A stretch of 64,000 nucleotides of DNA from Candidatus Scybalocola faecigallinarum (lineage in GTDB: Bacteria > Bacillota > Clostridia > Lachnospirales > Lachnospiraceae): the NCBI GenBank assembly GCA_018711005.1, contig DVIT01000015.1, positions 1,801 to 65,800 of the forward strand. Direction: 5' to 3'. Below, piece by piece: positions 1 through 4,350 of this stretch. The notes beneath the pieces are model-generated. The model worked only from the letters and a program-made list of their open reading frames with translations, was not told where the DNA came from and searched no databases. Numbering within the stretch: position 1 is the first letter of the stretch; every line of letters starts with the position of its first letter. A program made the translations under genes and the position numbers.

Positions 1-1724
1 ATGGCATCCCGATCATTCAGCCGCTCTACCATTTTCCGGTAAGCCTCCATAGGTGAAGACTCATAATAATTTTCATATTCATTGCCAAAGCTGTCGAATA
101 AGGAGGTGCGCATCCCATTAACATAAAAATAGGGAATATCCCTCTGGCACAATGCCCGGGTTTCATAGGAAATGATCCGGTCTTTCCACGGATTTGGGAT
201 TCTTGTACTATTATACAAATTTTGGAAAAATAATTTCTGCCGCCACATTTGTGTCATAAAAAAGCCATTTCCCGCCGTCTGAGTATACATATGATACTGC
301 TGTGTATTGCGCAGAAGCACCCGGCTGTTAATAGCAAATGCGGCTCTCGCTTTTTTCAAAAACGATCTTTTATTTTCCCGGGCAAAACGGTATGCGGACA
401 AAAAGCCTTCCACAAGTTCATTCACATATTTTGACGGATCTACAGCTTTGCCGTCAAGCGCAGGAAGATTTCCTTTCACTTCAAACTCCGGGTGTGTTAG
501 GATCACATCCATTTCCGACGTCTTGCCACGGATGATCACAGGCACACGTACCGGAAGTTTCTGCTTCTCCTGTCGGCCTATAGCTCCCAGGCGAACGCCC
601 TGGCCGTCAAAATTCCACACAGTGATGGGCAAAGCCCCGGTCATCAATACAGAATCCGCCAGCCGTGTAAACGCCTGACCTGTCATAGACATATCATTTC
701 CCGAAAATGCCCTTCCCGGAAATGTTTCCAGATCTACCAGCACCGGATGCTCGCCGCAGGCTAATATATTTTCAAAATGCATGTCTTTCACTGAAAACAA
801 ATAGCAAATAAACAGCTGAAGGCCAAGCCGGTAAAAGTACCGTTTTACCTGATCTTCATTGGTGCAGTCTCCGGAAAGAACCGCTTCGCACCAGCCATGG
901 CGGCCTTTATCAAGGATCTTATAGGTATAGCTTTCCATATGACACTCACCAGCAAGCCACGTATAAATTTCCTGGTACATCTGGTCATTTCTCATACTGC
1001 GGGGCTTGTAGTAAAGTACCTGGCCATCGGACCATGTCACACGGACCACAGTTCGCCCGCCAAAGTGGGCATCCGATGCACCAAGCTTTAACTCTGCAAT
1101 TTGTCCGGGAGCATTTCCTTCAAAAAACACATCCGCAATTTCATCACGATCATCTTTAAGATGTGCCTCAAACTCCCGGATGAAGCTTTGGAAATTTTTC
1201 ATCTGGCAATATAATATCCATGTCAGCGCCTTATACTTTTTAAGAATCTCTCCCCGATATTCTCCCTGAGTCAGATAATGATTAACATAATACTCATATT
1301 CTTTATGCGTATCACTCCCTGAAAGCTTATTCTCGTCTTTTAAAACCTTCATCTCACGGATCAAAACCCGGATACTTACACCTTCCAGCCGGCTAAACAA
1401 CACTTTCAGCAAAGACTCTCGAACATTTTCACTAAATCTTACCAGGCCCCAACCGTTGCATTCCTCCATCATCGTGATCCAAAAAGCCAACAGCGGCTCA
1501 TAAAAAGGGAAAAAGCACTGTTCTTCCAGCCATGCTGCTTTATATGTCCGTCCCGGGTTCTCACAAAACCGGGCCAAAGACTCCGAAACCGCCTCATCTT
1601 CTTCCCCGGAATCATCCCAATTTTCTATCATATTATCAAGCGTTTCTTTGCCAAGGATCTTTTTCCAAACATCATACTCCACGCCTGTTATTTTCTCTTT
1701 TAAAAAATTCCCCATCACTCTCAT
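1..1724 (-). CDS. lanM: Class II lanthipeptide synthetase LanM, N-terminal dehydratase (DUF4135-type) part; about 574 codons in the window, truncated by the left edge
   Basis: Hand translation of the minus strand is stop-free from ATG 1724 (or 1715; GGAGG SD upstream) to base 1. LanM dehydratase motifs occur in order: VSIRVLIREM, GASDAHFGGRTV, LYYKPR, HGWCE, RYFYRLG, DMHFENI, PVLVDLET, SVLMTGALP, NLPALDG, RVLLRNTQQY, CQRDIPYFY. It is absent from the ORF track because it has no in-window stop. Confidence 0.93.
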   Translation of the reverse strand, partial: MRVMGNFLKEKITGVEYDVWKKILGKETLDNMIENWDDSGEEDEAVSESLARFCENPGRTYKAAWLEEQCFFPFYEPLLAFWITMMEECNGWGLVRFSENVRESLLKVLFSRLEGVSIRVLIREMKVLKDENKLSGSDTHKEYEYYVNHYLTQGEYRGEILKKYKALTWILYCQMKNFQSFIREFEAHLKDDRDEIADVFFEGNAPGQIAELKLGASDAHFGGRTVVRVTWSDGQVLYYKPRSMRNDQMYQEIYTWLAGECHMESYTYKILDKGRHGWCEAVLSGDCTNEDQVKRYFYRLGLQLFICYLFSVKDMHFENILACGEHPVLVDLETFPGRAFSGNDMSMTGQAFTRLADSVLMTGALPITVWNFDGQGVRLGAIGRQEKQKLPVRVPVIIRGKTSEMDVILTHPEFEVKGNLPALDGKAVDPSKYVNELVEGFLSAYRFARENKRSFLKKARAAFAINSRVLLRNTQQYHMYTQTAGNGFFMTQMWRQKLFFQNLYNSTRIPNPWKDRIISYETRALCQRDIPYFYVNGMRTSLFDSFGNEYENYYESSPMEAYRKMVERLNDRDA

Positions 1725-1810
1725 CCTCCCTCCGGCAGGATTATCGTCTCTTGGTTTCTTCAAATATTGAAAAAAATCATTCTTTTTCTTTCGCCGCCCC
1801 ACTGTCAACG

Positions 1811-1885
1811 AAAACAAAAAGACTGCCATTAAATTTCAGGCAGAAGCTCAAAAGTCCTGGCCGAAGAAAATTTAATGGCAGTCTT
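1811..1885 (-). terminator. Stem-loop between lanA and lanM, followed by a U-rich tract
   Basis: Perfect 18-bp inverted repeat AAGACTGCCATTAAATTT (1819-1836) / AAATTTAATGGCAGTCTT (1868-1885). On the minus strand it is followed by TTTGTTTT. Confidence 0.7.
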
Positions 1886-1895
1886 CGGCTGCGCA

Positions 1896-2027
1896 TTAGC
1901 AGCAGATAACAGTTAAATAGCCGCCGCAATAAGATGAAAAACTTACTACATCTTCTAAATTGGAAGATTCATCAAATTTTTTGATTTCTTCCATTTCTTT
2001 TTCAATTAATTTAATCTCTTTCTCCAT
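1896..2027 (-). CDS. lanA: Lanthipeptide precursor peptide, 43 aa: MEKEIKLIEKEMEEIKKFDESSNLEDVVSFSSYCGGYLTVICC
   Basis: ATG at 2027 with GAGGT SD upstream, TAA at 1896-1898. Acidic helical leader and a Ser/Thr/Cys-rich C-terminal core (S29, S31, S32, T39; C34, C42, C43). It lies immediately upstream of lanM and is below the ORF-track size cut-off. Confidence 0.85.
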   Translation of the reverse strand: MEKEIKLIEKEMEEIKKFDESSNLEDVVSFSSYCGGYLTVICC

Positions 2028-3351: not shown

Positions 3352-3450
3352 AGACGATTCCTCCCAGATCTCTATTTCTTTGCGTATTCACCATCTCTCC
3401 CTCGTCAGGGACCGACGACAGGCTGTGTGGACAGCCGTCCGCCAGATCTT

Positions 3451-4176
3451 TCATTGATTGTGGTGAATGTAAAACTGGATAAGCTGTTTTTTAACATCAC
3501 GAATACGGCTCTGACTAACCTCCACATCCGGACCATAGCTGAGTTTCATCATCCGGTTACTGTCAATGCCGTTAACATGATTCATGTTAACAATGATCCC
3601 TTTGTTAACAAAAATAAACTCATCCGTTTTAAAATAATTCATCAGGCATGCCAGTGAACTTCGAGTTTTATATTCCCCTTTTCTTGTGTACAAAATGGAA
3701 TATTTACCGCTGCCCTTTTCTATTTTAATAATATCACGATAAAGTATTTTTGTCAGGCTTTGAGTATTATTCACAATATAATATTTCCCCTGAAGCAGAA
3801 TCATCTGGGAAATAACATATTCCAAAGCAGGCGGCAGTTTTTCATCCAGTTTGTTCTTTAAAATATATCTGGAGGCTCCTACCTCATAACCATCGGTACT
3901 GTACTCACCGTGATTGGTAATAAAGATAATAAAAACAACGCCGCACTTTTCCTGGATCAGCCGTGCTAATTCCAGACCATTACATCCGGGCATTTCCATA
4001 TCCAGAAGAAAAATGTCATAGCTTTTTCCTTCTAAAATATCTTCTTTGAGAAACTGACCATTTCCCATGGTCGTGATCCGGATATCATAGTCATTCTTCT
4101 CAGCCACTGACTCTACAATTTCTTTAACATGGCTGACAGTTTCCGGCTCATCATCAGCAATAACAAGCTTGATCAC
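3451..4176 (-). CDS. AgrA-like LytTR response regulator (RR1)
   Basis: Receiver motifs IADDE and DIFLLDMEMP, then YILK, and a C-terminal LytTR-like domain (FIFVNKGIIVNMNHV). Likely GTG start at 4176 after AAGGAGG; the ORF track starts at 4239. Confidence 0.9.
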   Translation of the reverse strand: MIKLVIADDEPETVSHVKEIVESVAEKNDYDIRITTMGNGQFLKEDILEGKSYDIFLLDMEMPGCNGLELARLIQEKCGVVFIIFITNHGEYSTDGYEVGASRYILKNKLDEKLPPALEYVISQMILLQGKYYIVNNTQSLTKILYRDIIKIEKGSGKYSILYTRKGEYKTRSSLACLMNYFKTDEFIFVNKGIIVNMNHVNGIDSNRMMKLSYGPDVEVSQSRIRDVKKQLIQFYIHHNQ

Positions 4177-4280
4177 ATGTTTCCCTCCTTCCTTATCATT
4201 CGTATCTTGCGTATCTGGGAATTTGTGTACAAATTTCACTATTTACCGCTTCATTTGTCAAAGTACATTGGCTATTTTTT

Positions 4281-4350
4281 ATTTTACCATATTATGGTAA
4301 CGTTTGCATAAATTGTCCTAAATCCGCCATTATTTGACCATATTCGCCAT
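4281..4350 (-). promoter_or_regulatory. Putative activator-dependent promoter of the RR1-HK1-lanA-lanM operon with 21-bp-period repeats
   Basis: Extended -10 TGgTAAAAT (4281-4289) with a poor -35 (ATGCAA). Upstream TGGTCAA/AGGACAA repeats are 21 bp apart and ATGGCG repeats are 20 bp apart. A perfect palindrome TTACCAT-att-ATGGTAA lies at 4284-4300. Confidence 0.5.

Follow-up and report, generated by a model that had tools for sequence, protein, structure and literature searches.

The stretch of DNA examined here (the window) comprises 64,000 nucleotides of contig DVIT01000015.1 from the Lachnospiraceae bacterium Candidatus Scybalocola faecigallinarum. Four contiguous genes lie on its minus strand: a response regulator with a LytTR domain (RR1), an AgrC-like sensor histidine kinase (HK1), a 43-amino-acid precursor peptide (lanA), and a lanthipeptide synthetase (lanM). 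A preliminary description of this DNA had read them in that order, with a hairpin between lanA and lanM, and all elements are present at the positions then given (Table 1). The source, an uncultured bacterium of the chicken gut, is close to Candidatus Scybalocola faecavium, with amino acid identities of 95% for PolC, 97% for IspG, and 93% for RR1.

Table 1. Features of the lanthipeptide cassette and its surroundings, in window coordinates
Feature	Position	Strand	Evidence or detail
lanM, N-terminal 571 codons, then window edge	2..1715	-	DUF4135 E=2e-93; TIGR03897 E=1e-127
Promoter-like TTGACA-18-AAGAAT between hairpin and lanM	1779..1808	-	Consensus scan 10/12
Hairpin and U-run directly after lanA stop; intrinsic-terminator-like attenuator	1811..1885	-	Minimum free energy -43.2 kcal/mol, z=-3.1
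Hypervariable allelic island, HK1 codon ~35-70 through lanA	1852..3252	-	Nucleotide identity of same-species contigs
lanA, 43-aa precursor MEKEIKLIEKEMEEIKKFDESSNLEDVVSFSSYCGGYLTVICC	1896..2027	-	ORF kept in all related cassettes
HK1, AgrC-like (HPK10-type) sensor histidine kinase, 446 aa	2011..3351	-	HATPase_c_5 E=1e-24
RR1, response regulator, receiver (Asp59) and LytTR domain	3451..4176	-	Pfam Response_reg 5e-16, LytTR 7.5e-12
Predicted operon promoter with LytTR-type direct repeats	4291..4350	-	Promoter consensus and repeat inspection
Terminator-like hairpin of upstream Rpn-like gene; upstream limit of cassette transcription unit	4415..4436	-	
Second two-component system (TCS2), seven FtsX/MacB-type permease genes, and ABC ATPase	5764-17469	-	HK2 9690-10997, RR2 10994-11755, ATPase 11871-12542

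The likely start of RR1 is the GTG at 4176, which gives a protein of 241 amino acids, is the choice of the gene callers, and stands behind the Shine-Dalgarno sequence AAGGAGGG; the position 4239 is not favored. ComE (4cbv) matches RR1 over its full length (residues 3 to 232) and is its best full-length structural relative, and RR1 scores 25.7 bits against the AgrA equivalog model, for which the cut-off is 400. In HK1, amino acids 1 to 220 form a sensor with ~6 to 7 hydrophobic, putatively transmembrane segments as judged by simple hydropathy, a rough method, followed by an H-box with His254 and a GHKL domain of the HATPase_c_5 family. A search of the PDB with HK1 as a single sequence returned nothing, and AgrC was reached only through a family profile, for which AgrC of Staphylococcus aureus is the best match (6e52, E=3e-10; 4bxi, 3e-7). 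The spacer between RR1 and HK1 contains a GC-rich imperfect hairpin (GACGGCTGTCCACACAGCCTGTCGTC) and a gene-caller ORF of 44 amino acids (3320-3454, minus strand) that begins MKDLADGCPHSL. This ORF was considered as a second, AgrD-like peptide and rejected; it is absent or different in three related loci (L013, L015, and L016) and is probably spurious.

The start of lanA overlaps the end of HK1 by 17 nt, and the gene lies 181 nt upstream of lanM. Its Shine-Dalgarno motif (GAGG) sits within the 3' end of HK1 and no strong promoter precedes it, which agrees with the earlier remark that lanA has no obvious promoter of its own. The leader of the peptide carries the motif E-I-x-K-F-D/E, common to the clade of the window's cassette (the window clade), and the predicted core, SFSSYCGGYLTVICC, has ~15 residues. 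Cores of the window clade follow the pattern [S/T]-[F/I/L]-[S/T]-x-x-C-[G/S]-x-x-[L/F/I]-[T/S]-[I/V/L]-[I/L]-C-C. The positions S29, S/T31, C34, T/S39, C42, and C43 are conserved, with the exceptions of T29 in two variants and of Cys-to-Trp changes in one peptide, P0002, and the residue before Cys34 is Y, S, L, I, or T, never E or D. LanA ends in TVICC right at the stop codon with no C-terminal tail, and its leader ends in EDVV directly before Ser29, without GG, GA, or GS. It is the sole credible ORF with an [ST]xxCC ending in the 64 kb. That lanA is no chance ORF follows from its retention, with invariant Ser/Thr/Cys positions, as far as clades whose LanM is 31% identical.

How widespread are peptides of this kind? 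Pfam and NCBIfam precursor models gave no match for LanA, a word-based search retrieved 2 relatives only, and an exhaustive phmmer (HMMER) search of 1.84 billion representative proteins found six true relatives. Therefore, either the window-clade family is rare or its small gene is seldom called. One LanA variant, P0002 from a 940-bp ENA contig, has a window-type leader and the core SFSSYWGGHLTLIWC, in which Trp stands in place of two of the three Cys (TGY to TGG); the change reflects decay of the allele or an error in sequencing.

The part of LanM encoded in the window scores 427 bits against TIGR03897, above the cut-off of 304, and the complete gene is available from other contigs. Contig L002 matches window positions 1 to 13351 with 0 mismatches (100%) and encodes a full LanM of 1,003 amino acids, and the full gene is also found on L001. 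The full-length protein consists of DUF4135 and LANC_like domains and contains the motifs SHG (818), WCHG (881), and CHG (930) with the zinc-ligand residues H819, C882, and C930/H931; LicM2 (6st5) matches it with E=2e-79 over residues 95 to 1000 (81% of the length aligned). Since the identical L002 carries the whole enzyme, lanM is no pseudogene past the window edge, and the LanC-like cyclase, whose intactness the preliminary description had left to a leftward extension of the contig, has its Cys-Cys-His zinc ligands in place. By its motifs, LanM is a complete class II lanthipeptide synthetase with predicted activity. The same extension did not reveal the LanT or peptidase gene that might have followed lanM; ispG and polC come next instead. 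In two further contigs (L005:1858-4867 and L103:6637-9649), lanM is broken into two or three ORFs. The split in L103 is likely a sequencing or assembly error, because the FtsX gene of this contig is frameshifted too, and true inactivation of lanM may occur in some strains.

The synteny of regulator, kinase, short peptide, and LanM, which had been proposed for a genome search, recurs in other genera and in distant gut clades. The order LytTR regulator, kinase, 43- to 46-amino-acid peptide, and LanM is found in Ca. S. faecavium (L013/L017), in Lachnospiraceae bacterium MGYG-HGUT-00127 (L015/L018), and in a metagenome-assembled genome of an uncultured member of the Eubacteriales (L016/L019). In the second of these, LanM is 45 to 46% identical to that of the window and the neighborhood is wholly different, with metabolic genes and an HTH_3 gene as flanks; in the third, the ribosomal operon directly precedes the cassette, with no transporter block of the window's kind in between. 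A scan of a genome collection yielded three species representatives only, and a metagenome scan with an HK1 alignment yielded ~26 loci of 8 distant types, mostly from the human gut, and no extra alleles of the window's species. The kinases of the distant types are 26 to 42% identical, with a short peptide gene next to them and, where the contig is long enough, a LanM (31 to 33% identical). All cassette peptides have [S/T]-x-x-C-C at the C terminus, followed by no more than one residue (GTIVCC, FTVICC, FSIICC, FTIVCCG, MSVFCCK, ISFGCC, SSKICC, and LTILCC), and the distant clades keep just this C-terminal part and its two Cys. No C39-ABC exporter (LanT), LanP, or LanFEG occurs in any cassette examined, and no C39 or ABC_membrane protein was found among the cassette neighbors or the large ORFs of the window; these large ORFs, checked for LanT or LanP, are unrelated housekeeping or regulatory genes. 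Similarly, AgrB (PF04647) has no Pfam or NCBIfam match among the products of the cassette or of any related locus.

Some distant cassettes carry additional genes. In distant human-gut clades, a soluble protein of ~185 to 216 amino acids without a Pfam match precedes the regulator (28 to 80% identical among clades), so that the cassette there is a five-gene unit. These ~190-amino-acid protein genes (L029:1911-2465, L022:2626-3213, L025:2420-2989, and L043:808-1458) are absent from the window clade, and their product could be a processing or accessory factor. L016 has an ORF of 190 amino acids ahead of its regulator gene that is not related to them, and neither occurs in the window. A small sigma-70 region-4-like gene and XRE-type HTH genes follow distant cassettes, and an NlpC/P60-like gene precedes that of L029 (sites L029:7545-8069, minus strand; L026:6266-6790; L043:6622-7161; L015:11107-11370). 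Such genes hint at conjugative or mobile elements as carriers of some cassettes. About 16 human-gut contigs share the identical L029-type peptide.

We compared five contigs that belong to the species of the window. The proteins RR1, the Rpn-like protein, HK2, IspG, and PolC are 100% identical among them and LanM is 97 to 99% identical, while HK1 (61 to 90%) and LanA (56 to 86%) differ strongly. At the nucleotide level, identity is 99 to 100% up to HK1 codon ~35 to 70, falls to 43 to 77% across the rest of HK1 and lanA, and returns to at least 96 to 99% just past lanA, giving sharp edges at ~3250 and ~1850. Synonymous divergence (dS) is ~1.6 inside this island and 0 to 0.07 in its flanks, compared to 0.6 to 0.9 between housekeeping genes of the sister species. 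The allele lineages cross species: L100 from the window's species and L101 of the Ca. S. faecavium type are 75% identical in the kinase and 77% in LanA (cores SISGLCGGYLTIICC and SISGLCGGHLTLICC), and, in the kinase, either one is only 61 to 69% identical to most alleles from within its species. The protein database contains at least 13 more HK1 clusters of the Scybalocola group, which differ by more than 10% and have mosaic segments. Trans-specific alleles with a dS above the species divergence indicate balancing selection on the HK1-LanA pair. In the L022/L025 pair there is no such island and all genes are evenly diverged, meaning that the polymorphism is established for the Scybalocola group only.

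Do the peptide and its putative receptor change together? In a Mantel test across eight loci, distances of the LanA core correlate with those of the HK1 transmembrane sensor (r=0.79, p=0.0002) and less with those of the physically nearer HK1 kinase domain (r=0.41). For the LanA leader, the highest correlation is with the neighboring kinase domain (r=0.72), which is what physical linkage by itself would produce. It could thus be argued that HK1 senses another cue, that LanA and LanM are mere output, and that the joint variability reflects linkage in a single recombination hot spot; the island is indeed contiguous, and the kinase domain, which lies inside it between both specificity determinants and from which no contact with the ligand is expected, varies as much as the sensor. 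Linkage alone, however, does not predict that the core tracks the more distant sensor above the adjacent kinase domain, the long-lived trans-specific alleles imply balancing selection on the pair, and the association of kinase, LanA, and LanM persists to identities of 26 to 33%. We therefore consider this explanation very unlikely. Taken together, the island and the covariation are, at the level of sequence, a signature of ligand-receptor coevolution under long-term balancing selection, and the position of LanM outside the island fits a leader-guided, core-tolerant LanM catalysis.

The region from 4281 to 4350, to which the preliminary description had pointed as the promoter, does hold direct repeats of the LytTR type. 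Four 9-bp repeats lie between 4350 and 4312 in a 20- to 21-bp register (ATGGCGAAT, ATGGTCAAA, ATGGCGGAT, and TAGGACAAT); the proximal one forms the -35 element (AGGACA, 4319-4314), and a 17-nt spacer separates it from the -10 element CATAAT (4296-4291). The usual LytTR site consists of paired 9-bp repeats with an 11- to 12-bp spacer, as for SilA (PMC4162386). Equivalent paired repeats stand ahead of the regulator gene in the sister species (species B). Upstream of the L015 cassette, GTGGACAGT and GTGGACAAG are 21 bp apart and are followed by TATAAT; in L029, TTCGAGGTCA and TTCGAGGACA, also 21 bp apart, precede the ~190-amino-acid gene just before the regulator. These data suggest that the repeats are a candidate RR1 site at the promoter of its own operon. 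A weight-matrix scan found no further paired RR1-type boxes in the intergenic DNA of the 64 kb, and no clear RR1-like repeats occur upstream of the FtsX/TCS2 block; without a second paired site in the window, the operon itself is the only RR1 target that can be proposed.

The preliminary description had treated the four genes as one transcription unit. This view holds only in part: lanM may also have a promoter of its own behind the hairpin that separates it from lanA. The hairpin has an 18-bp stem (1885-1868/1836-1819) followed by UUUUUGUUUU, the stem is conserved in both sister species (A and B), and hexamers resembling -35 and -10 elements occur at the equivalent place before lanM in other alleles and in species B. 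No Rfam model matched positions 1 to 20000 of the window. Four chicken-gut metatranscriptomes contain contigs that run across RR1-HK1 and HK1-lanA with a word depth of 10 to 18, and the depth over lanM is 0 to 2.3, a fall that fits attenuation at the hairpin as far as contig depth, a rough guide, reflects expression. Three of the four RNA contigs that cover RR1 end at 4245 to 4263, just downstream of the predicted transcription start. The RNA-seq assemblies break at 3211, where the hypervariable island starts, and one contig represents another allele, indicating that several pherotypes coexist in single samples.

That the operon is transcribed in vivo also bears on the idea that the cassette is a decaying remnant of a larger lanthipeptide cluster that lost its transporter, protease, and immunity genes. 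LanT, LanP, and LanFEG are indeed missing, lanM is split in L005 and L103, and P0002 has exchanged Cys for Trp. Decay is difficult to reconcile, however, with a lanM that is intact in most contigs and 97 to 100% conserved within the species, and with a peptide ORF that retains its invariant Ser/Thr/Cys through deep divergence; the frameshifted FtsX gene of L103 suggests an assembly error there. Hence, a remnant is an extremely improbable explanation.

Upstream of the cassette lies a block of transporter genes with a two-component system of its own. HK2 and HK1 are 42% identical over their full length without gaps, including the membrane sensor, and RR2 and RR1 are 50% identical; the two systems are paralogs. 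The block may be a generic module for lanthipeptide-responsive efflux or for immunity to antimicrobial peptides, and it resembles peptide-resistance modules of the sense-and-pump kind. The conserved cassette itself contains no dedicated immunity gene (LanI or LanFEG), and the block adjoins it in this genus only: the cassettes of L015/L018, L016/L019, and the distant clades do not have it as a neighbor. Because the L016 cassette directly follows the ribosomal operon, the block looks inserted in the window, or the region is an integration hot spot.

This neighborhood lends weight to the view of the cassette as a conventional autoinduced lantibiotic of the lacticin 481/salivaricin A type, in which RR1 and HK1 would be LanR and LanK, killing would be the main function, TCS2 with the FtsX/ABC genes would provide immunity or export, and the hypervariability would result from an arms race. 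The core pattern S-x-S/T-x-x-C...T-x-I-C-C recalls the F-T/V-C-C ends of the lacticin 481 group, and HK2, which shares the whole sensor domain of HK1, is surrounded by seven FtsX permease genes and one ABC ATPase gene. Self-induction via a two-component system is common among lantibiotics, and the FtsX-type SalXY confers immunity in salAMTXYKR (PMC4162386). However, the cassette recurs without transporter or immunity genes in other contexts and clades, and the block does not codiversify with the peptide, with 96 to 100% identity between alleles that share only 58% in LanA. Moreover, the Glu of the lipid II-binding TxS/TxEC motif is missing at the equivalent position of LanA, a strong promoter dedicated to lanA is lacking, and the core comprises just ~15 residues. 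A lantibiotic whose main function is killing is thus unlikely, and we favor a signaling role for the cassette.

Other features of the window have no evident part in the cassette. Between the transporter block and the cassette lies a Rpn/PD-(D/E)XK transposase-like gene (4559-5545, minus strand), whose (GLEQ)n repeat draws spurious matches to Yae1_N and FliH; the sister species has a 108-amino-acid fragment of it (L013:6348-6674). A large operon of the ribosomal protein/rpoA/secY type (17873-~36000, minus strand) is directly upstream of the transporter block. The gap between its rplQ (L17) gene and the first FtsX gene (17465-17880) has a perfect 23-nt direct repeat (CGGCTTGGGCTCATTAAGTGGTC) at 17622 and 17745 with a third partial copy, and a terminator hairpin with a 20-bp stem (17775-17819), without an Rfam match. 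Two genes farther along are unrelated to the cassette: a zinc-dependent phospholipase C-like gene of 288 amino acids (36929-37795, plus strand) beside an MFS/Atg22-like transporter gene, and a hybrid histidine kinase of 855 amino acids with a dCache_1 sensor and a C-terminal receiver (48482-51049, minus strand).

We propose that the four genes form a self-contained, autoregulated class II lanthipeptide signaling cassette and that, in an autoinduction loop, HK1 has the peptide derived from LanA as its ligand, and we give each of these two statements a probability of about 0.65. In this model, the LytTR-dependent promoter would drive an RR1-HK1-lanA transcript that is attenuated at the hairpin after lanA, and expression of lanM would depend on transcription through the hairpin, on a separate weak promoter, or on both. 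LanM would bind the acidic helical leader through E-I-x-K-F-D/E, dehydrate Ser29, Ser31, and Thr39, and add Cys34, Cys42, and Cys43, so that the hydrophobic core of ~15 residues would contain up to 3 thioether rings; the rings predicted from the analogy to the lacticin 481/salivaricin A group are 29-34, 31-42, and 39-43. The leader would be cut before Ser29, or farther upstream to leave a variable tail, and unlinked factors would remove it and export the peptide. The mature peptide would then bind the multitransmembrane sensor of its cognate HK1, His254 of HK1 would phosphorylate Asp59 of RR1, and phosphorylated RR1 would bind the direct repeats at the -35 element and close a positive feedback loop. 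The HK1 sensor and the LanA core would have codiversified into at least 13 allelic classes across two sister species, which would constitute pherotypes comparable to agr groups. Binding of the peptide to HK1, the feedback loop, export, and the biological output are steps that we infer. The earlier proposal of a modified peptide that acts as a signal for HK1 draws support from the island, the covariation, the transporter-free cassette, and the promoter repeats.

Several observations weigh against this model. The whole kinase domain is hypervariable too, which ligand specificity alone does not need, and the covariation, with its 8 to 10 loci, is partly confounded by linkage within one island. 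One RNA contig (X24) extends beyond the predicted transcription start, to 4366, and contig depth is a poor guide to expression. No cassette, and no neighborhood of one, encodes an exporter or a leader peptidase, and the leader lacks a double-glycine site. In addition, the paralogous TCS2, embedded among FtsX/ABC genes, adjoins the cassette in this genus, and the core resembles miniaturized lantibiotics of the lacticin 481 type. With these points in mind, we hold only tentatively that the peptide is a signal without any antimicrobial activity. Equally tentative is a broader picture, in which gut Clostridia would use an undescribed class of pheromones, namely, lanthionine peptides ending in [S/T]xxCC that are made by stand-alone LanM enzymes, perceived by AgrC-like receptors, and split into many private pherotypes; they would be dedicated signals, with HK2 perhaps hearing all pherotypes and controlling the efflux or immunity module.

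Full-text literature searches retrieved no description of an RR-HK-LanA-LanM cassette, and the only link found there between a LanM and LytTR or agr genes was CA_C0082. What would the signaling cassette mean if it is real? Thioether (lanthionine) cyclization would join thiolactone and lactone formation as a route to AgrC-type pheromones. The cassette would be a portable four-gene module of signal and receptor with at least 13 natural, probably orthogonal allele pairs, useful for studying the evolution of ligand-receptor specificity and as a source of orthogonal channels for synthetic biology. Some of the "orphan" lanM clusters, which genome mining now lists among antibiotics, would become signaling systems, and the coexistence of pherotypes in one gut sample would reveal a strain-level social structure in uncultured Lachnospiraceae of the chicken and human gut.

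How does the cassette compare with known systems? Like agr, it has a multitransmembrane kinase of the HPK10 type, nearest to AgrC, a LytTR regulator, paired repeats at the predicted promoter, a small peptide gene that adjoins the gene of a modifying enzyme, and a sharp-edged island of sensor and peptide with trans-specific alleles. AgrD-type precursors have a charged C-terminal recognition tail and an internal Cys or Ser, which closes a (thio)lactone with the residue where AgrB cuts. LanA ends in Cys-Cys without a C-terminal tail, so an AgrB-type thiolactone is impossible, and cyclization would proceed through thioethers made by LanM. The cassette further differs from agr in an island that leaves out the modifying enzyme and takes in the kinase domain. 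Its order of regulator, kinase, peptide, and enzyme is that of Clostridioides difficile agr2 (PMC2768977). Because the membrane endopeptidase AgrB and AgrD are absent, the cassette is no member of agr, though it probably works like agr.

Codiversification of the island type is known for the agr specificity groups and for the ComC/ComD and BlpC/BlpH pherotypes of pneumococci. The two Streptococcus pneumoniae systems share with the cassette an HPK10 kinase, a LytTR regulator, and codiversifying alleles of peptide and receptor. Their peptides, in contrast, are unmodified, have a double-glycine leader, and leave through a dedicated C39-ABC exporter, whereas the cassette peptide is a predicted LanM substrate without a linked transporter. 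The cassette is best described as a form of peptide quorum sensing that uses an HPK10/LytTR pair and whose pheromone is probably a lanthipeptide.

By enzyme and precursor, the cassette is assigned to the class II lanthipeptide clusters: it has the bifunctional LanM, and it lacks both the LanT/C39 exporter and the double-glycine site of this class. The lacticin 481 subgroup (lacticin 481, salivaricin A, ruminococcin A, and mutacin II) likewise consists of single LanM-dependent peptides, with [S/T]-x-[S/T]-x-x-C in the N-terminal part and [T/V]-C-C at the C terminus; the similarity to LanA suggests the same interlocked three-ring topology. The subgroup is defined by a lipid II-binding ring A with T-x-S/T-x-E-C and by an F-T/V-C-C(S) end. 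LanA has S-[FIL]-[ST]-x-x-C and T-x-[IL]-C-C but no Glu before Cys34, its core has ~15 residues instead of 22 to 27, and its cassette comes without a double-glycine leader or LanT.

In the autoinducing lantibiotics nisin (NisRK), subtilin (SpaRK), and salivaricin A (SalKR), a thioether peptide is sensed by a membrane kinase and raises expression of its own operon. Unlike the cassette, these clusters carry LanT or LanP, immunity genes (LanFEG, SalXY, or LanI), and a strong lanA promoter. To our knowledge, the regulators of autoinducing lantibiotics are of the OmpR or NarL type and none belongs to the LytTR family, none of their kinases is of the AgrC type, and we know of no agr-like hypervariable receptor island described for them. 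A LanM-family gene beside AgrC/AgrA-type genes in Clostridia has a precedent in Clostridium acetobutylicum, where quorum sensing controls the LanM-like CA_C0082, located downstream from a complete agrBDCA (PMC10301443). CA_C0082 homologs have 670 to 728 amino acids, without zinc ligands and dehydratase residues, and synthesis of the autoinducing peptide is independent of CA_C0082 (PMC10301443). The cassette differs in a LanM of 1,003 amino acids with all motifs, in having no agrBD, and in a lanA directly upstream. Self-induction of lantibiotics via two-component systems is already established, and salivaricin A is an intra- and interspecies signal with the allelic variants SalA1 to SalA5 (PMC4162386). 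What is new in the cassette, then, is not lanthionine quorum sensing as such; it is the AgrC/LytTR pairing, the minimal set of genes, and the pherotype polymorphism.

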